A stretch of 23,068 bases of DNA, taken from NCBI GenBank assembly GCA_037133055.1, contig JBAXOY010000044.1:1-23068 (forward strand). Reading direction: 5' to 3'. Under the pieces are notes generated by a model. The model did not search any database and was not told the origin of the DNA. It saw only the letters and a list, made by a program, of their open reading frames with translations. Within the stretch, counting starts at the first letter, position 1. The number at the start of each line of letters is the position of its first letter. The position numbers were made by a program, and so were the translations under genes. The stretch comes from Chlamydiota bacterium (lineage in GTDB: Bacteria > Auribacterota > Tritonobacteria > UBA1439). This document shows positions 33 through 21,317 of the stretch, in pieces.

Positions 33-713
33 ATGATCCGGAAAAACGAGTATCATCTTTTTGACAGTCTTGCGCGCGAGAAGCGGCTTGCGCACCTTTT
101 CACCACGAGACGCTTCGCCGAATGCGCCCCCCCGGGGATTGAGGGCCGGCGGGAGACGGTGATGCGGCTGAGGGAGACCCTCCTCCCCGGGGCCCGCGCG
201 TCGGCGTGGGGCGAGCAGGTGCATGGGAAAGGCGTCGCCCTCGTAGATGGAAGGGACGGGGCGTTTGCGGAAAAGCCGAACGCCGATGCGCTCGTGACGC
301 GCGAGGCCGGCGTCTGCCTGGTCGCGTTCGGCGCCGACTGCCCGATCGTCTTCATCGCCGACACGCGCACCGGGGCAATCGGGCTCGTCCACTCCGGGAG
401 GAAAGGGACGGAGGCGCGGGTCGCGACGGCCTGCCTCCGGAAGATGGGGGATGCATTCGGAACCTCGCCGGCCGACTGCCTGTGCGCGGTAAGCCCCTCC
501 ATCGGCCCCTGCTGCTACCCGGTCGATCTCTGGGCGCGCATCGAGGAGGAGCTTCGCTCCCTGGGGGCGGCGCGTGTCGAGAACCCCCGTTTGTGTACCG
601 CCTGTCATCCGGATCTCTTTTTCTCCTACCGAAGGGAGAAGGGTCGCTGCGGGAGGATGCTCGGGGCGCTGATGATCACGCAGAGGCAATGGCAAAGGAC
701 AAAATCAAAATGA
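33..713 (+). CDS. pgeF: PgeF/YfiH family purine nucleoside phosphorylase (polyphenol oxidase-like, peptidoglycan editing factor)
   Basis: Motifs QVHG, ADALVT, ADCPI, VHSGRKG, PSIGPCCY, CT...FFSYRR..GRM; pgeF-yggS synteny. Confidence 0.9.
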   Translation: MIRKNEYHLFDSLAREKRLAHLFTTRRFAECAPPGIEGRRETVMRLRETLLPGARASAWGEQVHGKGVALVDGRDGAFAEKPNADALVTREAGVCLVAFGADCPIVFIADTRTGAIGLVHSGRKGTEARVATACLRKMGDAFGTSPADCLCAVSPSIGPCCYPVDLWARIEEELRSLGAARVENPRLCTACHPDLFFSYRREKGRCGRMLGALMITQRQWQRTKSK

Positions 714-750
714 CAAACGAACGGCAAATTCCAAAACCAAATGTCAAAAT
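686..750 (+). repeat. Degenerate heptamer-periodic repeat (CAAA-NNN / AAATGAC-like), left arm of RM cassette
   Basis: gcaatgg caaagga caaaatc aaaatga caaacga ... caaattc caaaacc aaatgtc aaaat; contains the pgeF stop codon. Confidence 0.7.
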
Positions 751-810
751 TATAGATCCTGTGAATGATACTTTATTGGGCCAAATATCTTCCCTCGTTT
801 CCGCTAATGA

Positions 811-819
811 TGTCATAAT
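811..819 (+). promoter_or_regulatory. Possible extended -10 promoter for hsdM
   Basis: TGtCATAAT ~45 nt upstream of the hsdM ATG; no good -35. Confidence 0.3.
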
Positions 820-864
820 CCGCTCCTGAAACAGAAACCAAGCCATACCTCGGGGGCACCAACA

Positions 865-2844
865 ATGGAGCAACCGCAACTCGGTTGGATTGCCAACTTC
901 ATCTGGGGTATTGCGGACGACGTATTGAGGGACCTTTATAATCGTGGTAAATATCGCGACGTTATCCTGCCGATGACCGTTCTACGGCGGCTCGATTCCC
1001 TATTGGAGCCAAACAAGCAAGCCGTTCTCGACCAGAAGACCCGGCTCGATAAAGCGGGCGTCGTCCACCAGGACCAGGCGCTACGGCAGGCGGCCGGGCA
1101 GGCCTTCTACAATACATCGAAGTTCACCCTGCGCGACCTCAAGGCCCGGGCCAACCAGCAATAGCTCAAGGCCGATTTCGAGGCCTACCTCGATGGATTT
1201 TCGCCGAACATTCAGGATATTCTTGAAAAGTTCGAGTTCCGCAATCAGATTCCACGCCTCTCCAAAGCCGACGCTCTCGGCACATTGATTGAGAAGTTTC
1301 TTTCCCCCGACATCAACCTCAGTCCTAATCCCGTGCGAAACGGCGACGGATCAGTAAAACATCCGGGACTCGATAATCATGGAATGGGCACGATCTTTGA
1401 GGAGCTGGTGCGCCGCTTCAACGAGGAGAACAACGAGGAGGCGGGCGAGCACTGGACGCCGCGCGATGCCGTGAAACTCATGGCGAAGCTGATCTTTCTG
1501 CCGATTGCCGACCAGATCGAATCGGGGACCTACCTGCTCTATGACGGCGCCTGCGGCACGGGCGGAATGCTGACCGTGGCGGAAGATACGCTCCAGGATC
1601 TCGCCAGGCAGCACGGCAAACAGGTGGCCACCCACCTTTACGGCCAGGAAATCAACTCTGAGACTTACGCCATCGCCAAGGCGGACCTCCTGCTCAAGGG
1701 CGAAGGCGAGGCGGCGGACAACATCATCGGTGGCCCTGAATACTCGACCCTCTCAAATGACGCCTTTCCCTCTCGCGAGTTCGACTTCATGCTCTCGAAT
1801 CCACCATACGGCAAGAGCTGGAAAAGCGACCTCGACCGGATGGGCGGCAAGGACGGCATCAAGGACCCGCGCTTTCTGATCGAGCACGCCGGTGACGTGG
1901 AATACTCGCTGATCACCCGATCAAGCGATGGCCAAATGCTCTTCCTGGCCAATATGATCAGTAAAATGAAGCAGGGCTCCAAACTCGGCAGCCGCATCGC
2001 CGAGGTGCATAACGGCAGTTCCCTTTTCACGGGCGATGCTGGCCAGGGCGAGAGCAACATCCGCCGTTGGATCATCGAGAACGACTGGCTCGATGCCATT
2101 GTCGCCCTGCCGCTCAATATGTTCTATAACACGGGAATCGCCACATACATTTGGGTGCTCTCCAACCGTAAACCGATACACCGCAAAGGCAAGGTCCAGC
2201 TTATCGACGCCACGCAGTGGTTCAAGCCCTTGCGCAAGAACCTGGGGAAGAAGAACTGCGAGCTGTCGGACGAAGACATCCAGCATATCTGCGATACTTT
2301 CCTCTCCTTCAAGGAAACCGAACAATCGAAAATCTTCCCAACTGCCGCCTTCGGCTACTGGAAGGTGACAGTCGAGCGGCCGTTGCGGCTCAAGGGCATT
2401 GACCCGAACCGGGCCTACACGCCCAAAGAGATCAAGGCGCTCAAGGAAACCGCTGAGCGCAGCGACGATGCGCCGCCCGTCATCAAGAAGATTCACAAAC
2501 GTGGCACTGAGGCTAATCCATTGCACGGTCTAATCGCAGCGACCGTTGCCGGCAAACCCGCCGTCGTCGAGTACGAGCCCGACACCGATCTGCGCGACAC
2601 CGAGCAGGTGCCCCTGCTGGAGAAGGGCGGCATCGAGGCCTTTATCCGCCGTGAAGTGCTGCCCCATGCCGCCGACGCCTGGTATGACCCGGAGTGCATC
2701 AAGACCGGCTACGAGGTCAGCTTCACCCGCTACTTCTACAAGCCCCAGCCGCTGCGCACATTGGAAGAGATTCGGGCGGACATCCTGGCGCTGGAGAAGG
2801 AGACCGAGGGTTTGCTCGGTGAGATAATCGGAGGCGGCGCCTGA
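865..2844 (+). pseudogene. hsdM: Type I RM methyltransferase subunit HsdM, interrupted by one in-frame TAG at 1162-1164
   Basis: ORFs 865-1164 and 1285-2844 share a frame and read ...ANQQ*LKADFEAYLDGFSPN...; N-terminus FIWGIADDVLRD..YRDVILPMTVLRRLD; motif I DGACGTGG; motif IV NPPY (m6A); 659 codons if restored. Confidence 0.9.
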
Positions 2845-2847
2845 ACC

Positions 2848-3951
2848 ATGGAGAAGAAAGGCATTCCCAAAGCTAATACCGTCTTCGTAAAGGCAATGTC
2901 CCCCGCGCCGGTCGAAGCCTCCTTCGCAGAAGTCGTTAGCCTCATCGAGCGGGCGCGTCAACGCGCGTATCAGGCGGTCAACACCGAACTCGTCAATCTG
3001 TACTGGCAGATCGGCGAATACATCAGCGCCAAGCTATCCACTGCCGAATGGGGGGATGGTGTCGTGGACCGGCTGGCGCGGCATCTCGCCCGGACCATGC
3101 CCGGCCTGAGGGGTTTCACCCGCAGAAACCTGTTCCGGATGCGTCAGTTCTACGAGACCTACGCCAGGGATAAGAAAGTGACACCGCTGGTGACACAATT
3201 GCCCTGGACTCATCATCTCATCATCATGAGCCAGTGCAAGCGCCCGGAAGAACGGGAATTCTACATACGGCTGGCCATTCGCGAGTGCTGGGGAAAACGG
3301 GAACTGGAGCGTCAGTTTCGAGCCGCTCTGTTCGAGCGCGCCGTCCTGAATCCGCCCAAAGTCGCACCGGCGTTGCGACAAATTCACCCCGCAGCCGAGG
3401 CCGTATTCAAAGATGCCTATTTCGTCGAGTTCCTCCAGTTGCCCGAGACCCACACCGAAACCGATCTGCACCTCGGGCTCGTGACCGAACTGAGAGATTT
3501 TCTCATTGAGCTCGGCCGGGACTTCTGTTTCGTCGGTTCCGAGTACCCCGTGCAAGTCGGTGGGCGTGACTTCGCGATTGACCTTCTCTTTTTTCATCGC
3601 GGCCTCAACTGCCTGGTCGCCATCGAGCTGAAGGTGGATCGCTTCGAACCCGAGCACTTGGGCAAGCTCAATTTTTACCTCGAAGCCCTGGACCGCGATG
3701 TCCGCAAGCCCCACGAGAATCCATCCATCGGCGTGCTGATGTGCGCCACCAGGGACAGCGAGGTGGTGGAGTACGCCCTAAGCCGTTCGCTCTCCCCGGC
3801 GTTGATCGCCGAATACCAGACCCAGTTGCCCGACAGGAAACTTCTCGCAGCCAAGCTGCACGAGTTCTATGCCCTGAACGCATCGAAGGAGCCCGATGCG
3901 GCAATGCCTCGCGCGCGCCCGCAGCGCAAGCGCAAGGGGACGAAACCATGA
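2848..3951 (+). CDS. YhcG/DUF1016 family PD-(D/E)XK nuclease domain protein
   Basis: YWQIGEYI, GFTRRNLFRMRQFY, LPWTHH, KDAYFVEFL, IDLLFFHR..LVAIELK, GKLNFYL, VVEYAL. Confidence 0.9.
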   Translation: MEKKGIPKANTVFVKAMSPAPVEASFAEVVSLIERARQRAYQAVNTELVNLYWQIGEYISAKLSTAEWGDGVVDRLARHLARTMPGLRGFTRRNLFRMRQFYETYARDKKVTPLVTQLPWTHHLIIMSQCKRPEEREFYIRLAIRECWGKRELERQFRAALFERAVLNPPKVAPALRQIHPAAEAVFKDAYFVEFLQLPETHTETDLHLGLVTELRDFLIELGRDFCFVGSEYPVQVGGRDFAIDLLFFHRGLNCLVAIELKVDRFEPEHLGKLNFYLEALDRDVRKPHENPSIGVLMCATRDSEVVEYALSRSLSPALIAEYQTQLPDRKLLAAKLHEFYALNASKEPDAAMPRARPQRKRKGTKP

Positions 3952-5384
3952 TCGCTGACCTCAAGCCCTATCCAGCGATGAAGGACTCCGGCCTGCCGTG
4001 GCTGGGGGAGGTGCCGGGGCATTGGCACTTTCGACGCACGAAGACACTATTGCGTGAACGCGTGGGAAAGGGCTTTCCCGACGAGCCTTTACTTGCTGCA
4101 ACGCAGACGAAGGGGGTTGTCCGGAAGGATCAGTACGAGAACCGGACGGTACTTGCACTGAAGGATCTGCATCTCCTGAAGCTCGTTCGGATCGGCGATT
4201 TTGTCATTAGCCTACGATCTTTCCAGGGCGGCATTGAGTTTGCCCGAGAGCAAGGCATCATCAGTCCTGCATACACGGTCTTGTATCCGACTGACCCTGG
4301 AACACATGGCTTCCTAGCCTGGCTATTCAAGTCGAAGCCGTATGTCGAGAACCTATCCCTGTACGTGACAGGGATCCGACAGGGGCAGAACATTGACTAC
4401 GAGAAGATCAGCCGGTCCGCGATCCCTCTTCCCCCCCTCCCCGAACAAGCCGCCATCGTTCACTTCCTCGACCACGCGGATCGGCGCATTCGGCGCTACA
4501 TCAGCGCCAAACAGAAGCTGATCAAACTGCTGGAGGAGCAGAAGCAGGCGATTATCCACCACGCCGTCACCCGTGGCCTCAATCCCAACGTCCGCCTCAA
4601 ACCCTCCGGCGTGGAATGGTTGGGCGACGTGCCGGAGCATTGGGAGTTGCGGCGACTTCGCAACATGGCTCAAGTGTTGGTCAGCAATGTTGACAAGCAC
4701 ACCAATGCGAATGAGAGCCCTGTCCGGTTGTGCAACTACGTCGATGTTTACAAGAACGAACGCATTACCGAGGGGCTATCGTTTATGCGGGCCACCGCCT
4801 CACCGGTTGAGCTTGAACGGTTCCGCCTGCAAGCGGGTGATGTGATCATCACTAAAGACTCGGAGGAGTGGAATGACATTGGCGTTCCTGCTCTAGTTGA
4901 GCACTCGGCGCCGGACCTTGTCTGCGGCTATCACTTGGCAATTCTCCGCCCACGCAATGGCGTCGCGCTTGGTGAGTATATGCTACGAGCTCTAAAGAGC
5001 CGGGGAGTGGCTTCGCAGTTCTATGTGTCCGCAAATGGGGTAACTCGATACGGACTATCGCATGGCGCTATCAAGAGCGCTTTTCTTCCCGTCCCACCCC
5101 TCCCCGAACAATCGGTCATTGTCCGGTTCCTCAACGAGGCGACCGCGAACATCATTACCACCATCGACCGCGCGCAACGCGAAATCACCCTCCTCCGCGA
5201 ATACCGCATCCGCCTAATCGCCGACGTGGTCACCGGAAAAATCGACGTGCGTGAGGCGGCCGCGAGGTTGCCAGAAGCGATCGAAGAGCCGGAGGCACTC
5301 GACGACACCGATGCGCCGGCCGAGGGGGACGAAGACAACGCCGCCGGCGACCTTGACACCGCCCTTGAGGAGACCGCGACATGA
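3948..5384 (+). CDS. hsdS: Type I RM specificity subunit HsdS (two TRDs)
   Basis: ATG 3948 coupled to the yhcG stop (ATGA); duplicated conserved blocks DSGLPWLGEVPGHW / PSGVEWLGDVPEHW and PPLPEQ x2; LIADVVTGKIDVR. Confidence 0.9.
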   Translation: MIADLKPYPAMKDSGLPWLGEVPGHWHFRRTKTLLRERVGKGFPDEPLLAATQTKGVVRKDQYENRTVLALKDLHLLKLVRIGDFVISLRSFQGGIEFAREQGIISPAYTVLYPTDPGTHGFLAWLFKSKPYVENLSLYVTGIRQGQNIDYEKISRSAIPLPPLPEQAAIVHFLDHADRRIRRYISAKQKLIKLLEEQKQAIIHHAVTRGLNPNVRLKPSGVEWLGDVPEHWELRRLRNMAQVLVSNVDKHTNANESPVRLCNYVDVYKNERITEGLSFMRATASPVELERFRLQAGDVIITKDSEEWNDIGVPALVEHSAPDLVCGYHLAILRPRNGVALGEYMLRALKSRGVASQFYVSANGVTRYGLSHGAIKSAFLPVPPLPEQSVIVRFLNEATANIITTIDRAQREITLLREYRIRLIADVVTGKIDVREAAARLPEAIEEPEALDDTDAPAEGDEDNAAGDLDTALEETAT

Positions 5385-5547
5385 CCAACAGCGGGCTCAT
5401 CGCGCTCATCGACCGCCTGCGCGCTCTGCCGACGGAGACGGAGTGGTCCACAACCTGCTGCAAAAACTCCGCCGCTCAGGTAGCATCGCCAACAAAGGTA
5501 CTCGGTCGCATCCCGAGTGGGTTTCAGTGGAGGCACCCCATGATTGA
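5381..5547 (+). pseudogene. Internally deleted remnant, probably of an AlbA_2/Schlafen-like + HATPase + HTH accessory gene
   Basis: N-terminus MTNSGLIALIDRLRALPTETEW (start coupled to hsdS stop), joined out of frame at ~5446 to a C-terminus-like VHNLLQKLRRSGSIANKGTRSHPEWVSVEAPHD*; family assignment is from recall. Confidence 0.6.
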
Positions 5548-5865
5548 GCAAAGGAATTTGTCCTGGAAACGAACGAAAACTTCGGAAAAGTAGCCGCAAC
5601 TCTATGACAGAGAAGATGTTAGCCCTTTGCTAAACTGCGGTAGATGCCGACGTTCTAGCAAAGGATTTAGCAAACAGGTGTCGTTCTGGGCGGCGCCGAA
5701 ACGGGGCCGGGAGGAGATTGTTTGATCCGTTACCTGCAATCGATCCAGGGCTGGCCGTGGGGATGGCGTAATTCCCTTGGGATTAGAGCGTTATGACCAT
5801 AGAAATTGATTTATGGATGCTTGATTGGGGGCCGTTTTTAGACCCGGAATGGGAGTATCATCGCC

Positions 5866-8800
5866 ATGACCACCGACACCTCTGAACGCGGCCTTGAACG
5901 GCTGATCTGCACGGCGCTGACTGGCTCGCCCTGTGACCCGGGCACGCCACATACGAGGGAGATACAAAAGCCGGGCGAACCCTTCGGGGGCAGCGGCTGG
6001 ATTTGCGGGGATCCCAGCGACTACGATCGAGAGTACGCGGTAGACCTTGGCCAACTCCGCGATTTCCTAGGCGAGACACAGCGGGAGGTGGCAGAGGCCC
6101 TCGATCTCGATCAGGATGGCCCTATCCGGCGGAAGTTTCTGGCCCGGCTCCAGGGTGAGATTTCCAAACGCGGTGTGATCGACGTATTACGCCACGGGGT
6201 AAAGCATGGGCCGCGCCATATCGATCTCTTCTATGGCACACCCTCGCCGGGTAACCCTGCCGCAATCGAACGATACGCCCGGAATCGCTTCAGCGTTACA
6301 CGCCAGTTGAAGTACAGTCGTGATGAAACACAGCGTGCCCTTGATCTCTGTCTCTTCATCAACGGCCTGCCGATTGTTACCTTCGAGTTAAAAAATAGTC
6401 TGACCAAGCAGACTGTCGAAGATGCTATCCAACAGTATAAACGCGACCGTGACCCTCGGGAACGACTCTTCGAGTTCGGACGCTGCGTGGTACATCTCTC
6501 CGTGGACGACCACGAGGTACGTATGTGCACGCACCTCAAGGGCAAAGCCTCATGGTTCCTGCCGCTAAATCTCGGATGGAACGATGGGGCGGGGAATCCT
6601 CCGAACCCCGACGGCCTCAAAACCGACTATCTCTGGAAACGTATCCTCACCCGCGACGGCTTGACCGACATCATTGAAAATTATGCACAAGTTGTTGAAA
6701 CCAAAGACGAGAAAACCGGCCGCAAGAAAAGAGAGCAGATCTTCCCGCGCTATCACCAGCTTGACGTGGTCCGGCGCCTTCTGGCCGCGGCGGCAGAGGA
6801 CACTATCGGGCGACGCTATCTCATTCAGCATTCAGCGGGCAGCGGCAAATCGAACTCGATAGCCTGGCTCGCTCATCAGCTTATCGGGCTCAAGAAAGAC
6901 AATGTGGAGGTGTTCGATTCGATCATCGTCGTTACCGATAGAAAAATCCTCGACAGGCAAATCAAGGACACCATCAAGCAATTTGCCCAGGTGGGCGCAA
7001 CGGTAGGCCATGCCGAGCACTCCGGTGATCTACGCAAGTTTATCGAGGAAGGCAAGAAAATCATTATTTCCACCGTGCAGAAGTTTCCGTTTATCCTCGA
7101 CGATATCGGGAGCGAACATCGAGGGCGGAAGTTCGCCATTATCATTGATGAGGCCCATTCCAGCCAGGGTGGTCGGACCTCGGCGGCCATCAGCATGGCG
7201 CTCTCATCCGCGGGTGCGGAAGAGGACGACGAGACCACCGAGGACACGATCAATCGCATTATGGAGTCACGGAAGATGTTGCCGAATGCGAGTTACTTCG
7301 CATTCACTGCAACCCCCAAGAACAAGACGCTTGAGATCTTTGGCGTGCCCTACAAGGAAGGAGACCAGGTCAAGCATCGACCTTTCCATAGTTATACTAT
7401 GAAACAGGCGATCCAGGAGGGTTTTATCCTGGACGTCCTCAAGAGCTATACGCCGGTTGATAGCTACTATAAACTAATCAAAAAAATCGAGGGCGATCCC
7501 GAGTATGATATAAAGCGGGCGAAAAAGAAATTACGCCGCTACATCGAGGGCCATGACCATGCAATCCGGCTCAAAGCCGAAATAATGGTGGATCATTTTC
7601 ACGAGCAGGTGGTTGGTCTCAATAAGATCGGAGGACAGGCGCGGGCGATGGTGGTGACGAGCGGCATCGAGCGCGCCATCCAGTATCACCACGCCATTCG
7701 AGACTACTTGGAGGAGCGCAGGAGCCCCTACCGGGCAATCGTGGCCTTTTCGGGTGAGCATGACTACGGTGGCGCGCGGGTAAGCGAGGCATCACTGAAC
7801 GGATTTCCGAGCAGCCTGATCGCTGATAGGATCCAGGAGGAGCCATATCGATTCCTGATCTGCGCCGATAAGTTCCAGACCGGCTACGACGAGCCGCTTC
7901 TGCATACAATGTATGTGGATAAGCCGCTATCGGGCATCAAGGCGGTGCAAACGCTTTCGCGGCTCAACCGTGCCCGTCCGCAGAAATATGATGTTTTCGT
8001 GCTCGACTTCCAGAATGACGCGAAGGTCATCGAATTGGCATTCGCCGATTACTACCGCACAACCATCCTCTCGGAGGAGACCGACCCGAACAAGCTGCAT
8101 GATTTGAAGACTGATCTGGAGAGGCATCAGGTCTATGCACAGCCCCAGGTCGATCAATTGGTAGAACTTTATCTGGGCGGGGCGGACCGCGACAAGCTTG
8201 ACCCTATTCTCGATGCCTGTGTGGCGGTCTATAAGGAGCAACTGGACGAAGATGGGCAGGTCGAATTTAAGGGTAAAGCCAAGGCATTCGCTCGAACGTA
8301 TAGCTTTCTCGCTTCAATCCTGCCCTACACAAATGCGGAATGGGAAAAGCTGTCGATCTTCCTGAATTTTCTCGTTCCCAAATTGCCGGCGCCCGAAGAG
8401 GATGATCTTTCCCGGGGTATCCTCGATGCGATCGATATGGATAGCTATAGAGTCGAGAAGAAGGCCGCGATGAAAATCGCCCTGCTCGATAAGGATGGAG
8501 AGATCCCACCCGTGCCCACCAGCGGCGGGGGACATATCGCCGAGCCGGAGCTCGATCGGTTGAGCAATATCCTCAAGACATTCAATGACCAGTTCGGCAA
8601 CATCAAATGGACCGATGCGGACCGAATCCACCGCCTGATCACGCAGGAAATCCCCGCCAACGTGTCCAAGGATACCGCCTACCAGAACGCGATAAAAAAC
8701 TCCGACCGGCAGAACGCCCGCATCGAACACGATAAGGCGCTTGAACGCGTAGTGACCGCAGTGCTCAAAGATGACACCGAGTTCTTCAAACAGTTCAGCG

Positions 8801-8898
8801 ATAACGAATCATTCCGCAGATGGCTGACGGACTCGATGTTCGCGTTGACATATACCCAACCCAAAATAGTTCAAGATCGGGCTTCCGCTGTCATTTAG
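5866..8898 (+). CDS. hsdR: Type I RM restriction endonuclease subunit HsdR
   Basis: Nuclease LDLCLFINGLPIVTFELK..AIQQYK; Walker A HSAGSGKS; DEAH; FTATP; QTGYDEP; VQTLSRLNR; uninterrupted 1010 aa. Confidence 0.95.
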   Translation: MTTDTSERGLERLICTALTGSPCDPGTPHTREIQKPGEPFGGSGWICGDPSDYDREYAVDLGQLRDFLGETQREVAEALDLDQDGPIRRKFLARLQGEISKRGVIDVLRHGVKHGPRHIDLFYGTPSPGNPAAIERYARNRFSVTRQLKYSRDETQRALDLCLFINGLPIVTFELKNSLTKQTVEDAIQQYKRDRDPRERLFEFGRCVVHLSVDDHEVRMCTHLKGKASWFLPLNLGWNDGAGNPPNPDGLKTDYLWKRILTRDGLTDIIENYAQVVETKDEKTGRKKREQIFPRYHQLDVVRRLLAAAAEDTIGRRYLIQHSAGSGKSNSIAWLAHQLIGLKKDNVEVFDSIIVVTDRKILDRQIKDTIKQFAQVGATVGHAEHSGDLRKFIEEGKKIIISTVQKFPFILDDIGSEHRGRKFAIIIDEAHSSQGGRTSAAISMALSSAGAEEDDETTEDTINRIMESRKMLPNASYFAFTATPKNKTLEIFGVPYKEGDQVKHRPFHSYTMKQAIQEGFILDVLKSYTPVDSYYKLIKKIEGDPEYDIKRAKKKLRRYIEGHDHAIRLKAEIMVDHFHEQVVGLNKIGGQARAMVVTSGIERAIQYHHAIRDYLEERRSPYRAIVAFSGEHDYGGARVSEASLNGFPSSLIADRIQEEPYRFLICADKFQTGYDEPLLHTMYVDKPLSGIKAVQTLSRLNRARPQKYDVFVLDFQNDAKVIELAFADYYRTTILSEETDPNKLHDLKTDLERHQVYAQPQVDQLVELYLGGADRDKLDPILDACVAVYKEQLDEDGQVEFKGKAKAFARTYSFLASILPYTNAEWEKLSIFLNFLVPKLPAPEEDDLSRGILDAIDMDSYRVEKKAAMKIALLDKDGEIPPVPTSGGGHIAEPELDRLSNILKTFNDQFGNIKWTDADRIHRLITQEIPANVSKDTAYQNAIKNSDRQNARIEHDKALERVVTAVLKDDTEFFKQFSDNESFRRWLTDSMFALTYTQPKIVQDRASAVI

Positions 8899-8918
8899 AT
8901 CATGGCATCTGTCATTTT
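8889..8918 (-). repeat. Heptamer-periodic right arm of RM cassette, inverted relative to 686-715
   Basis: Reverse complement of 8889-8916 matches 688-715 at 21/28 positions ungapped; contains the hsdR stop. Confidence 0.6.
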
Positions 8919-9150
8919 ACATAGGGATTGACCCCCGCGGCGGGGCTGTAAGCTCTTGGGGTCAAACCTCGCCTATTGACTAAAGCAGGCAGTCCCTTTT
9001 TCTAACGGTGGCACGAGCCTCGGCGGGCTTCGACCTGCCCAGCAATAACCTGTCCGAACTGGATAGAAGAATCCGCGGCACGCGAGGCGGGAGGAAAGAA
9101 CGATAATGTGTCATTTCATCAAAAGGGATTGACCCCCGCGGCGGGGCTGT
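8910..9150. repeat. REP-like cluster (GGGGTCAA-N-TGAC hairpins) with a 27-bp exact direct repeat
   Basis: Copies at 8910-8935(-), 8958-8981(+), 9109-9136(-); AGGGATTGACCCCCGCGGCGGGGCTGT at 8923-8949 and 9124-9150. Confidence 0.7.
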
Positions 9151-9181: not shown

Positions 9182-9856
9182 ATGATCGCCGACAATGTCG
9201 CACGGGTGAGGGAGAGGATCGCCGCCGCGGCGCGGCGCGCCGGGCGGCGCGCCGGGGACGTCGAGCTCCTCGCCTCCACGAAGGGGCGGTCGGTCGGGGA
9301 GATCGAGGAGGCGCTCAGCGCGGGCATTTGCGTAATCGGCGAGAACCGGGTGCAGGAGGCCGCGCGGAAATCCGCGGCGCTTCGCGGGCGCGCATCCCTA
9401 CACATGATCGGCCACCTCCAGCGCAACAAGGTCGCGGAGGCGCTGCGCCTGTTCGAACTCATCCATTCCGTCGACAGCCTCAGGCTCGCCGAGGAGATCG
9501 ACCGGGAGGGGGCGAAGGCCGGGCGCGTGGCGCCCGTGCTCGTGGAGGTGAATGTCTCCGGCGAGGAGCGGAAATTCGGGATCGCCGCGGGCGGGCTCCC
9601 CGCATTTCTCGACGCCGTCGGGCGCCTCGAGTGCGTCCGTGTGGAGGGGCTGATGACCATGGCCCCGTTCTCGGACAACCCCGGGGACTCGCGCCCCTTC
9701 TTCAGGCGCCTCCGCGAACTCGCCGCCGCCGCGGCGCGAGGGGAGACGCCGCGCGTCCGGATGCGGCATCTCTCCATGGGGATGACGCAGGATTTCGAGA
9801 CGGCGGTCGAGGAGGGGGCTACAATAGTCAGGATAGGGACCGCGATATTCGGATGA
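9182..9856 (+). CDS. yggS: YggS/PLPBP pyridoxal phosphate homeostasis protein
   Basis: ASTK, GENRVQE, HMIGHLQRNK, IHSVDS, GLMTM, LSMGMT.DF..AVEEGAT.VRIGTAIFG; ATG 9182 chosen over GTG 9149. Confidence 0.95.
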   Translation: MIADNVARVRERIAAAARRAGRRAGDVELLASTKGRSVGEIEEALSAGICVIGENRVQEAARKSAALRGRASLHMIGHLQRNKVAEALRLFELIHSVDSLRLAEEIDREGAKAGRVAPVLVEVNVSGEERKFGIAAGGLPAFLDAVGRLECVRVEGLMTMAPFSDNPGDSRPFFRRLRELAAAAARGETPRVRMRHLSMGMTQDFETAVEEGATIVRIGTAIFG

Positions 9857-9885: not shown

Positions 9886-10710
9886 ATGACGGCGAGGATA
9901 GACAGGAAGATAGGGTTCGTGGGCGGCGGGAACATGGCGGAGGCCATCATCCGCAGCCTCCTCGACGCGGGGCTGTGTCTCGCCTCGGATATCCGCGTGA
10001 GCGACACGCGGCGCGAGCGGAGCGCGCATCTTCACGGCAGCTTCGGGGTGGAGGCCGTGGAGGCGAACGGGAAGTGCGTCGCGATGAGCGACATCGTCAT
10101 CCTCGCCATCAAGCCCCAGAACATGGGCGCCGTGCTCGATGAGCTTTCGCGGGAGGGGATCTCCCCAGGGAGGCTCGTCCTTTCCATCGCCGCCGGGATC
10201 ACGACCGCGAGCATTGAACGGGCGCTCGGCGGAGAGGCCGCAGTGGTGCGCGTCATGCCGAACACCCCCGCCCTGATCGGGGAGGGGATGTCGATATGGG
10301 CGAGGGGGAGCCGGGTGGGGGAGCGCGACGCGGAGTACGCGCGGTGCATCCTGGGCGCGCTCGGGAAGGAGATCGAGGTCGGCGAGGAGCTGATGAACGC
10401 GGCCACCGCCCTGTCGGGGAGCGGCCCTGCGTACGTCTTCTACCTGCTCGAGGCGATGGAGAAGGCGGGAGAGGAGCTCGGCTTCACCGCCGCGCAGGCG
10501 CTCGCCATCTCGACACAGACCGTTATCGGCGCCGCGCGGCTCGTGGAGACTTCCGCGCAGCACCCGGATGAGCTCCGCAGGAAGGTGACCTCTCCCGGCG
10601 GCACGACGGCGGCGGCCATCAGGGTGCTCGATGAGAAGGGCGTCAGGAAGTCGTTCATCGCGGCGATCAAGGCCGCGTGCGCGCGTGCGGATGAGCTGAG
10701 TAAAATATAA
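9886..10710 (+). CDS. proC: Pyrroline-5-carboxylate reductase
   Basis: GFVGGGNMAEA, LAIKPQ, SIAAG, RVMPNTP, TALSGSGPAY, VTSPGGTT; ATG 9886 with upstream AGGGGGG. Confidence 0.95.
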   Translation: MTARIDRKIGFVGGGNMAEAIIRSLLDAGLCLASDIRVSDTRRERSAHLHGSFGVEAVEANGKCVAMSDIVILAIKPQNMGAVLDELSREGISPGRLVLSIAAGITTASIERALGGEAAVVRVMPNTPALIGEGMSIWARGSRVGERDAEYARCILGALGKEIEVGEELMNAATALSGSGPAYVFYLLEAMEKAGEELGFTAAQALAISTQTVIGAARLVETSAQHPDELRRKVTSPGGTTAAAIRVLDEKGVRKSFIAAIKAACARADELSKI

Positions 10711-10731
10711 ATCCCAAATCCCAAATCCCAA
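10709..10731 (+). repeat. Tandem heptamer (AAATCCC)x3
   Basis: aaatccc aaatccc aaatccc aa, starting in the proC stop codon. Confidence 0.8.
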
Positions 10732-10776
10732 CATAGCGGGCTAAAAGGACGGACACGATTTCCACCGAAGGTGGCC

Positions 10777-15878: not shown

Positions 15879-16922
15879 ATGGACGACGGGCGGCGTGAAC
15901 GGCGGAAAACGGCCAGCGCGCGGTTCGCGGCGGGGGAGCGTGCGCGCCGGCATCCGGAGGCGGGCGCGGCACTGATTGCGGTTGGCGGGGAGAGCGACGG
16001 GGAGCGCCTGGACAGGTTCCTCGTCGGGCGGATGGACGGGTTCTCCCGCGCCGCGGTGCAGCGCCTGATCGAGGGCGGGCGCGTCCTCGTGAACGGCAGG
16101 GCCGTCAAGGCGCACCAGCGGGTACGCGCGGGCGACCGGGCCGAGGTCTCCGTCCCCCCGCCCGCGGAGACCGGGCTCCTCGCGGAGGATGTCCCGCTCG
16201 TGGTGCTCTACGAGGACGGCGATCTCCTCGTGGTGGACAAGCCGCCGGGGATGATCGTCCATCCGGCAGGGCGCATTGTCGCCGGGACGCTCGTAAACGC
16301 GCTCCTCGCCCGCTGCCCGGACCTTTCCGGGATAGGCGGCGAGCTCAAGCCCGGGATCGTCCACCGGCTCGATAAGGGCACGAGCGGCTGCATCGCCGTC
16401 GCAAAATGCGATGAGGCGCATCGCCTGATCTCCGCGCAGTTCGCGCGCCGGGAGGTGTACAAGGAGTACCTCGCGATCGTGCACGGTGCGCCGCCGGGCC
16501 CGCGGGGCATTGTGGAGGGGCTGATCGCGCGGCACCCGGTCGAGCGGAAGCGGATGGCGGTGCGGCGGGACCGCGGGCGGGAATCGGTCACCCGCTACGA
16601 GGTGATCGAGCGGTTCGGCGGATTTTCCTGGGTTTCGCTGCGCCTCCACACGGGGAGGACGCACCAGATCCGCGTCCACATGGCGCACCTCGGGTGTCCG
16701 GTGCTCGGCGACCCGCTGTACGGCCGGGGGAGGACGCGGACGGCGGCGGGCGTCGAGGCCGGGCGGCCGATGCTCCACGCGTGGCGTCTCGGGTTCGCGC
16801 ACCCAACTTCCGGGAGGGCGCTGCGCTTCGAGGCGCCGATACCGGGGGATATCGCCCGCGTCCTCGCGGCGCTGCGGGCGGAGGGTGCGGCGATCAAGGC
16901 TTCAACGCCGGGACGCAGATGA
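15879..16922 (+). CDS. rluD: RluA-family pseudouridine synthase with S4 domain (RluD-like)
   Basis: RLDRFL, VDKPPGMIVHP, GIVHRLDKGTSG, TGRTHQIRVH, GDPLYG; start codon uncertain. Confidence 0.88.
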   Translation: MDDGRRERRKTASARFAAGERARRHPEAGAALIAVGGESDGERLDRFLVGRMDGFSRAAVQRLIEGGRVLVNGRAVKAHQRVRAGDRAEVSVPPPAETGLLAEDVPLVVLYEDGDLLVVDKPPGMIVHPAGRIVAGTLVNALLARCPDLSGIGGELKPGIVHRLDKGTSGCIAVAKCDEAHRLISAQFARREVYKEYLAIVHGAPPGPRGIVEGLIARHPVERKRMAVRRDRGRESVTRYEVIERFGGFSWVSLRLHTGRTHQIRVHMAHLGCPVLGDPLYGRGRTRTAAGVEAGRPMLHAWRLGFAHPTSGRALRFEAPIPGDIARVLAALRAEGAAIKASTPGRR

Positions 16923-17229
16923 ACGCAGATAGTCAGGATGGACGCAGATACGACGATTGAAGGATGAATGGGACGCGGATCGGCGCGGATGCACGCGGAT
17001 GAGACAACAGCGTAACATTGAAAGTCCAAAGCAAAGAGGCATTCAGGACGCAGATGAACGCGGATGAACGCAGATAATGAACGGCTAAAAGGCGAATGGG
17101 ACGCGGATCGGCGCGGATGCACGCGGATAAAACAGGGAAACAGAATCTATGTTTCGGACGCGGATCGCCGCAGATGTGCGCGGATTGGGAAACAGCCTGA
17201 AAATATTTCAATGCCGGGACGCAGATGAA
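16901..17229 (+). repeat. Array of NNNCGCRGAT decamer blocks separated by 21-45 nt spacers
   Basis: Blocks at 16911-16949 (interrupted), 16971-17000, 17046-17075, 17099-17128, 17156-17185, 17217-17226; bounded by a 22/23-nt direct repeat. Confidence 0.85.
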
Positions 17230-17245
17230 AAGAGGCGGCACGGTC

Positions 17246-19076: not shown

Positions 19077-19260
19077 GTAACTGCTCAGGAGCCAGAATTC
19101 AGGAGTCAGAAGCCAGGAGTTGGAATGAGGACGCCGACGGCGATAGTCAAGAACTTGGGATATGGCGATGGTTCCGGGCTGGATTCAGTACGCTGTGGGA
19201 AGCGTATCCGCGACCCATTCTGGATTCTGGCTCCTGGCTTCTGACTACCTGAGTAGTTAC
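19077..19260. mobile_element. 184-bp non-autonomous MITE with TIRs, internal inverted heptamer arms and 8-bp TSD
   Basis: GTAACTGCTCAGG...CCTGAGTAGTTAC (12/13 inverted match); CAGTCATG directly on both sides (19069-19076, 19261-19268). Confidence 0.85.
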
Positions 19261-19284
19261 CAGTCATGGCGGGCCATCACATTA

Positions 19285-19325
19285 TTCCCCTCCCCCCTTG
19301 AGGGGGAGGGAAAGGGTGGGGGGTA
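19285..19325. repeat. REP-like hairpin (CCCCTCCCCC-TTGA-GGGGGAGGG type)
   Basis: TTCCCCTCCCCCCTTGAGGGGGAGGGAA followed by GGGTGGGGGGT. Confidence 0.6.
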
Positions 19326-19400
19326 AAAATACCCCATGAGACTGTCCCCTACCCCTGGCGTGAGTTTCCCGTTGATAGTTTCCCGGGATTGAGGTTAACT

Positions 19401-20594: not shown

Positions 20595-21317
20595 GTGAAT
20601 CCCCGTTTTCTCATCACCGCGGGCCCCACCCGCGAGTATCTCGATCCGGTCCGTTTCCTCTCCAACCCCTCCAGCGGGAAAATGGGCTACGCCCTCGCCC
20701 GCGCCGCTCTCCGCGCAGGGGCGCGGGTCACCCTGGTGAGCGGCCCCGTCGCGCTGAAACCCCCGGCGGGGGCGCGCCTCGTGGGGGTCGAGAGCGCGGC
20801 GGATATGCGCCGCGCGGTGCGGCGTTTCTCGCGCGATGCCGACGTCATCGTCATGGCGGCGGCGGTGGCCGACTACAGGCCCGCGCGGCGGCTCCGGCGC
20901 AAGATGAAAAAAGGGGCCTCCGCCCTTTCCGTGAAAATGGTGCGGACGCGGGACATCCTCGCCGAGCTCGGGCGGCGCCGCGGGCGCGCCGTGCTGGTCG
21001 GGTTCGCGGCGGAGACGGGGAGGCTCGTCCCGGAGGCGGAGCGGAAACTCAGGGCGAAGCGTCTCGACCTCATCGTCGCGAACGACGTCTCGCGTCCGGG
21101 CGCGGGGTTCGGAAGCGACTTCAACGAGGCCTTCCTGATCGACCGGCACGGGGCGCGCGACCGCGTTCCCCGGATGACGAAGGGCAGGCTCGCGCGGCTG
21201 ATCGTGCGCCGGTGCCTGGAGATGCGGGCGGAATTTGAGAAGCGGGAAGGGCGGGGATCTGGTGCCGGAGGCCGGACTCGAACCGGCACGGCTACTCACG
21301 TAGCCTCGGGATTTTAA
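20595..21317 (+). CDS. coaB: Phosphopantothenate--cysteine ligase (stand-alone CoaB)
   Basis: ITAGPTREYLDPVRFLSNPSSGKMG, AAAVADY, VGFAAET, IVANDV...FGSDFN; GTG start. Confidence 0.92.
   Translation: MNPRFLITAGPTREYLDPVRFLSNPSSGKMGYALARAALRAGARVTLVSGPVALKPPAGARLVGVESAADMRRAVRRFSRDADVIVMAAAVADYRPARRLRRKMKKGASALSVKMVRTRDILAELGRRRGRAVLVGFAAETGRLVPEAERKLRAKRLDLIVANDVSRPGAGFGSDFNEAFLIDRHGARDRVPRMTKGRLARLIVRRCLEMRAEFEKREGRGSGAGGRTRTGTATHVASGF

Follow-up and report, generated by a model that had tools for sequence, protein, structure and literature searches.

Within a stretch of 23,068 nucleotides from a Chlamydiota bacterium (contig JBAXOY010000044.1, hereafter the window), a type I restriction-modification (RM) cassette separates the host genes pgeF and yggS and lies between two inverted arms of degenerate heptamers. 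We found that both arms are members of a dispersed heptamer-hairpin family, here called AATGACA. They are probably the split halves of a small hairpin element already resident at the pgeF-yggS junction, into whose loop the horizontally acquired cassette would have landed without needing the arms. If so, the locus is a clean single example of nesting, in which a tiny repeat makes room at a tight operon junction that is afterwards taken up by a defence cassette.

The arms and their heptamer-hairpin family

The left arm (positions 688-752, forward strand) is a full-length, decayed AATGACA element arm, and comparison with complete empty elements showed that only the outer 28 bp of the right arm (8889-8916, reverse strand) are left, the inner part being missing. 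As an earlier note on this DNA had reported, the 28-mer at 688-715 and the reverse complement of 8889-8916 are identical at 21 of 28 positions without gaps. When the flanks were dinucleotide-shuffled, at least 21 matches arose in 0, 2 and 1 of 1000 trials at three search sizes. By itself the score is nevertheless modest, because three of 46 unrelated RM loci reach 21-22/28 within 400x400-bp flanks. What settles the reality of the arms is that both score as copies of a dispersed family, stronger evidence than the 21/28 match. A matrix trained on 10 arms located elsewhere in this genome gave 44.9 bits for the left arm and 32.5 bits for the right arm, against a maximum of 24.3 bits in the reversed genome that served as the null.

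In this genome the AATGACA family is rare, with about 10 loci in 3 Mb apart from the island; it comprises four inward-facing pairs that are empty and span 50-160 bp, together with six arms of solo or miniature form. The island arms point inward, as do those of the four empty pairs, and their identity to each other is within the range of three empty pairs (20-22/28). Those three pairs fold with z values of -4.4 to -6.6, whereas joining the island arms in silico gives only a weak fold (z -2.0 to -3.0). The possibility that the left arm has a nearby partner of its own was rejected, as positions 688-830 do not fold (z 0.6). The 7-nt periodicity described in the earlier note is present yet modest, with lag-7 matches of 11/21 in the left arm and 8/21 in the right. 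A strict heptamer-tract detector picked up neither island arm, and both were too degenerate to appear among the longest pairs of a general repeat finder. With 21/28 identity and a truncated right arm, the pair does not amount to near-perfect terminal inverted repeats. A 96-letter contig from sequencing run X6 matches the left arm exactly over 56 letters (window positions 683-738), its first 22 and last 18 letters remaining unaligned.

The connection of heptamer arms with four-helix-bundle genes, which the earlier note had drawn, is supported, at the loci examined, by three loci in relatives (G007:C80, G007:C50 and G003:C211), where a four-helix-bundle (PF05635) gene or its remnant lies between or beside AATGACA arms, and by an internal-deletion copy of such an element at 19077-19260 in the window. 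Most of 30 four-helix loci from eight genomes have, by eye, 7-base arrays of various units on both sides. None of the four four-helix genes found in this genome (G000) carries AATGACA arms. The island copy has neither a four-helix gene nor a short empty loop between its arms; it holds an 8.1-kb RM cassette, and tblastn detected no four-helix remnant in it. Other small elements are nested in the loops of AATGACA hairpins (L239, L240).

A foreign and decayed restriction-modification cassette

The genes between the arms, all on the forward strand, run hsdM-yhcG-hsdS-stub-hsdR. hsdM (865-2844; HsdM_N, N6_Mtase) is followed by yhcG (2848-3951; DUF1016; PF17761, PF06250), a PD-(D/E)XK nuclease-family gene accessory to the cassette, and by hsdS (3948-5384; PF01420 in two stretches). 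The stub (5381-5532) consists of the first and last pieces of a 555-aa AlbA_2 and HATPase_c_4 gene, as indicated by tblastx matches to both gene ends in three homologous loci (L073, L074 and L090) and by Pfam on L074. hsdR (5866-8898; HSDR_N, SWI2_SNF2; TIGR00348 below cut-off) has an open frame, and its stop codon lies within the right arm. hsdM, hsdS and hsdR are thus present together with Pfam scores over cut-off, the gene set of a type I RM system. A 112-bp linker (753-864) between the left arm and hsdM is retained in run X8, and across 80 homologous RM loci blastn gave no match upstream of position 863.

The cassette had been described as whole, a claim that fails at two genes. The HsdM frame is not intact: an in-frame TAG at 1162-1164 takes the place of codon 100, a position at which Q is found in 47 of 51 aligned homologues. 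Contigs of runs X1, X2 and X6 match the TAG, while a small X7 contig and X8 contigs have C; position 1162 is likely to fall in a sense codon in the overlapping X8 contig, which is of similar depth. Read-through of the TAG was considered and rejected, no CTA-anticodon tRNA being among the tRNAs found in the 92% complete assembly. In addition, the AlbA_2/HATPase_c_4 gene has lost about 1.5 kb internally and is whole in L073, L074 and L090. From the known subunit structure, a type I enzyme would be expected to lose its activity when HsdM is truncated, and the RM system would for this reason now be off.

The island is foreign in composition. A hidden Markov model (HMM) delimited a low-GC segment at 590-9132 with the arms at its edges, and GC content at third codon positions (GC3) is 0.67-0.76 inside the island versus 0.81-0.91 in four flanking host genes, in agreement with the earlier note. 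HsdR relatives at 66-84% identity occur across many phyla, and HsdR homologues (E < 1e-100) were found in five of 78 other genomes of the phylum and in none of seven family genomes. The cassette is present as a single copy in this genome. These results demonstrate its foreign origin and patchy distribution. Neither an integrase nor a transposase gene was seen among the island open reading frames (ORFs), and no tRNA lies near the island, the nearest being at 21260; an integrase gene and tRNA attachment site, as in an integrase-driven island, are thus missing. The earlier note was right on these points but had missed the end of a Y1-transposase element just past the right arm. An Rfam scan gave two tRNAs and nothing else, and sigma-70 promoter scans gave no site at either island edge.

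The insertion is also old. An X8 contig spanning 400-1158 differs from the window at 59 positions plus 5 gaps over 759 bp and has the same pgeF-arm-hsdM junction, with family-consensus letters at 692, 697 and 707, the three places where the left 28-mer departs from the consensus. Because this relative at about 92% identity shares the left junction and has a consensus arm, the insertion is older than the split of the two lineages and has decayed in the present one.

How the cassette came to lie between the arms

pgeF and yggS are adjacent in five of seven family genomes, each spacer being empty or holding a different small repeat; the junction is not visible in the loci fetched from G006 and G007. 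In G002 a TTGACC (-35-like) hexamer before yggS supplies the TGA that closes the pgeF frame, and the junction there has no free room because the pgeF stop overlaps this hexamer. The G005 spacer contains a degenerate arm of the AATGACA family, interrupted by a nested 30-bp element, which scores 26.3 bits after removal of that element, just above the 24.3-bit null. In eight sequencing runs no contig joined across the island as an empty allele would, although contigs drop rare variants. A metagenome scan with a PgeF alignment gave, among the matches listed, two family-level loci, one of them with a G001-type spacer.

We consider it likely that a small hairpin element settled first on the pgeF stop codon at the pgeF-yggS junction. 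The hairpin may have created dispensable space, the only harmless room in an otherwise full junction. The RM cassette would then have entered the loop by illegitimate or microhomology-led recombination, an entry that would have removed the loop and the inner right arm while the cassette stayed. The arms would since have been passive scars, not mobilising ends. The order of events and the route of entry are what we infer here.

The earlier note had proposed that heptamer-armed elements may act as cargo cassettes or landing pads that load defence genes in trans. Among 80 homologous RM loci, none of the 46 with both cassette ends in view has an arm of this kind at its edge, and the sole arm-like match across the 80 is inside hsdR. 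DNA homology between the island and these cassettes starts at 863-898, the hsdM start, and ends at 8817-8861. Two of the cassettes are flanked by exact direct repeats, of 24 bp in L127 (one copy 98 bp ahead of hsdM, the other on the hsdR stop) and of 43 bp in L140, and are candidates for insertion with long target duplication. Transposase or integrase domains lie beside two of 33 homologous loci, a weak result given that only 20 of 87 ORFs had any match. Homologous cassettes occur in many settings that lack arms, and some adjoin housekeeping genes (e.g. L069). No type I locus bracketed by arms was found among five in the phylum and three in the family, several of these loci ending at contig ends, and in the G048 type I locus heptamer tracts lie about 5.7 kb away and do not bracket it.

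In a G005 sample (256 kb of 2.7 Mb, picked for arm density) with 86 arms and 33 inward pairs, all 33 pairs span 57-166 bp. A separate set of 12 fetched arm-pair regions had three kinds of insert: four-helix genes, small repeats nested in the loop, and glyA with a solo arm on either side. At this last locus (L237, G007:C78) the solo arms face inward 1.5 kb apart and one overlaps the glyA 5' end. In the present genome, this island is the only one of 42 complete low-GC islands with arms at its two edges; tracts occur at 4 of 118 island boundaries versus 5.6 expected, so that edges are not enriched. Inward pairs of commoner heptamer families here span 1.6-11 kb of host-like genes, as judged from their N-termini. 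Viral contigs gave one arm-pattern match with no inward partner. No second large foreign cargo bracketed by arms was found in any set examined, and the RM cassette is the largest insert found between AATGACA arms. With one genomic copy and 0/46 homologous loci, the arm-cassette-arm unit is known from one site. Hence, with no second case, arm-less homologous cassettes and an old, decaying unit, the idea of arms as mobilising ends was not borne out, nor did the genome scan for paired arms with cargo lend it support. The landing-pad idea holds in a passive sense, small elements nesting in hairpin loops, but not in the sense of arms loading defence genes in trans.

That four-helix-family hairpins, as recombination anchors or trans-mobilised ends, bring multi-kb defence cassettes into tight operons without an integrase, with this locus as an old decayed example, is in our estimation unlikely. 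If true, heptamer repeats and the PF05635 family would gain a role in moving defence genes without integrases, for which the tests gave little support. Recombination anchoring, in which arm-rich donor DNA replaced the resident loop via crossovers in shared heptamer arrays, is quite unlikely taken alone. In its favour, near-identical arms are common to three other family genomes (29 pattern matches in G003, 45 in G007 and 221 in G005), solo arms sit at many gene ends, and the right arm contains the hsdR stop and has lost its inner part. Against this, the left arm and hsdM are 112 bp apart, with no arm sequence in between, arms are not enriched at island edges, and no arm-bearing donor cassette appeared among 80 + 5 + 3 loci. 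A single non-autonomous arm-cassette-arm unit, mobilised in trans by whatever spreads four-helix-bundle elements, is very unlikely. Empty, solo and gene-bearing forms do occur at lineage-specific sites, the arms are at the island edges, and RM genes between inverted repeats without a transposase have a precedent (PMC2853133). On the other hand, there is one genomic copy and no second site in anything searched, four-helix-bundle genes are the only genes seen inside true pairs, the right arm is truncated in an old and decaying unit, and the single viral-contig match has no inward partner.

It is also distinctly unlikely that two independent solo arms, one at the pgeF end and one at the hsdR end, face inward by chance. 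Six solo or miniature arms in this genome, glyA of G007 bracketed by solo arms, commoner-family inward pairs around host-like genes, and the position of both island arms on stop codons, usual for the AATGACA family, would suit such a coincidence. The rarity of the family argues against it, with a rough estimate of less than 1 in 1000 across 42 islands, tempered by the clustering of solo arms, such as two on contig C23. Delivery of the cassette by a Y1 (HUH) transposase element is highly improbable. The end at 8955-8984 lies 40 bp from the right arm and agrees with the inverted ends that bound two full Y1_Tnp elements of this genome, but the left edge has no matching end. Moreover, what the nearby 45-bp duplication brackets is a stretch of 156 bp and not the cassette; since the arm tip is part of the duplication, the latter is likely to postdate the hairpin.

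Several observations weigh against the reading we favour, passive entry into a resident hairpin. The right arm abuts the hsdR end, at most 28 bp from the last homologous base, which is tighter than a random landing needs. The arm pattern has no match in either of the two same-genus genomes. X8 shows the left junction only. Junctions without the cassette were seen in relatives, but the search found no empty site within this species or a sister species, which leaves the order of events conjectural. The hosts of the 80 cassettes show just 12 heptamer tracts in 1.33 Mb, so that the lack of arms there is a weak negative; several comparison loci end at contig ends; and the G005 pairs come from a sample chosen for its arms.

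Host genes, the right edge and neighbouring repeats

The upstream host gene pgeF (33-713, forward strand) was taken from the ORF list and matches TIGR00726 (E 1e-33, below the curated cut-off); its stop codon lies within the left arm. In X8 the first heptamer gives an earlier in-frame TGA in pgeF. In the window this first TGA is lost and the arm (688-713) provides the stop, making the protein 7 residues longer than the X8 allele. The downstream gene yggS (9182-9856, forward strand) scores over the TIGR00044 cut-off, and the island runs about 200 bp beyond the right arm. This edge contains a duplicated stretch of 45 bp (39/45 identical, forward strand). The first copy (8907-8949) covers the arm tip and the upstream half of a putative yggS promoter; the second (9106-9150) is continuous with a conserved promoter-like stretch before yggS that has the same TTGACC...ACAC layout in G001 and G002 and received no score in the sigma-70 scan. 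Given that the arm tip is part of the duplicated stretch and that no more than 156 bp lie between the copies, the duplication probably arose later and would not be the target duplication of the cassette. No direct repeat was found on both sides of the RM genes, the best direct match being 19/28. A target-site duplication was not seen by eye at the outer arm ends, and the inner-edge local match is no better than shuffles (P 0.55), although old duplications decay.

The solo Y1 element end (8955-8984, forward strand) lies 40 bp outside the right arm, between the two copies of the 45-bp repeat. Full elements with a Y1_Tnp (PF01797, over cut-off) gene between 22-26 bp inverted ends are present at G000:C17:11362-12440 and C88:5003-6083; inverted ends are unusual for HUH transposases. 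At G000:C17:11184 and 11365 the Y1 end is repeated in tandem in a similar way, with a distance of 181 bp. Solo ends of the element precede several host genes, and one empty hairpin was found at C41:1912.

The separate heptamer-armed element at 19077-19260 (forward strand), which the earlier note had likened to the island, does have inverted heptamer arms, but its unit differs, being of the CAGGAGT type. It aligns to both ends of an element at G000:C135 whose gene is PF05635, and several copies at 80-94% occur in this genome. It occupies the yicC-gmk spacer, where G007 and G003 have AATGACA-type elements with four-helix genes or remnants (L236, L238). A many-copy palindrome family with G/C runs adjoins it at 19280-19340, and the same type is nested in the G003 AATGACA hairpin L239. 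Between rluD and manA (16900-17230) lies a multi-copy repeat element with units ACGCAGAT/ACGCGGAT and many related copies in the genome. At the proC end (10700-10740) there is a solo heptamer tract of the AATCCCA/GGGATTT type, of which the genome has about 66.

Cyanobacteria possess short tandemly repeated repetitive heptamers (STRR2), intergenic direct-repeat arrays that resemble the island arms in lying at gene ends. Intergenic TAACTGA repeats (PMC4679880) are of a similar kind: they form 7-base arrays where genes end or start, are patchily distributed, and spread by a mechanism described as unknown. They too are described as direct repeats, not as arms of a split element. In Geobacter metallireducens, paired inverted heptamer or octamer sites are known (PMC2700814). 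These pairs are alike in that they are intergenic and lineage-specific and consist of tandem 7-8-mer arrays, one on each strand, whose distance varies; insertion sequence (IS) elements are inserted beside some, and the class 3 consensus MTYCTGA resembles the 19077 element. They were proposed as regulator binding sites, and the text covered makes no link to four-helix genes or multi-gene cargo. Intervening sequences (IVSs) of 23S rRNA can contain an ORF of the S23p/PF05635 family (PMC4990558). They are alike in having a four-helix gene inside terminal inverted repeats with tandem heptamers and in a mobility that is proposed and unshown. They reside in rRNA genes, whereas the AATGACA family is intergenic, and the arms of its island copy enclose an RM cassette without any trace of a four-helix gene. 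In the literature searched, which covered few subscription journals, no report of multi-gene cargo, RM or other, between heptamer arms was found.

A further parallel is with RM systems between inverted repeats, described as 'transposon-like structures' (Furuta, Abe and Kobayashi 2010, PMC2853133). In that report, as here, RM genes lie between imperfect inverted repeats, no transposase is needed in the unit, insertion sites are operon-like and repeats span start or stop codons. In contrast, its clear cases have 26/26 or 60/65 repeats that the empty site lacks, together with target duplications of 8 bp, and its set excluded high-copy repeats; the island arms are a multi-copy genomic repeat with 21/28 identity and no duplication seen. 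The same report describes a long-target-duplication pattern of RM insertion (PMC2853133), as at L127 and L140. Homologous hsdM-(accessory)-hsdS-(accessory)-hsdR cassettes, with HsdR at 66-84% identity in many phyla, vary in their accessory genes; the island copy differs in its hsdM nonsense codon and in lying between heptamer arms. The feature is real, and its most likely cause is an ordinary one, namely the nesting of an RM island, now in decay, within a repeat element.

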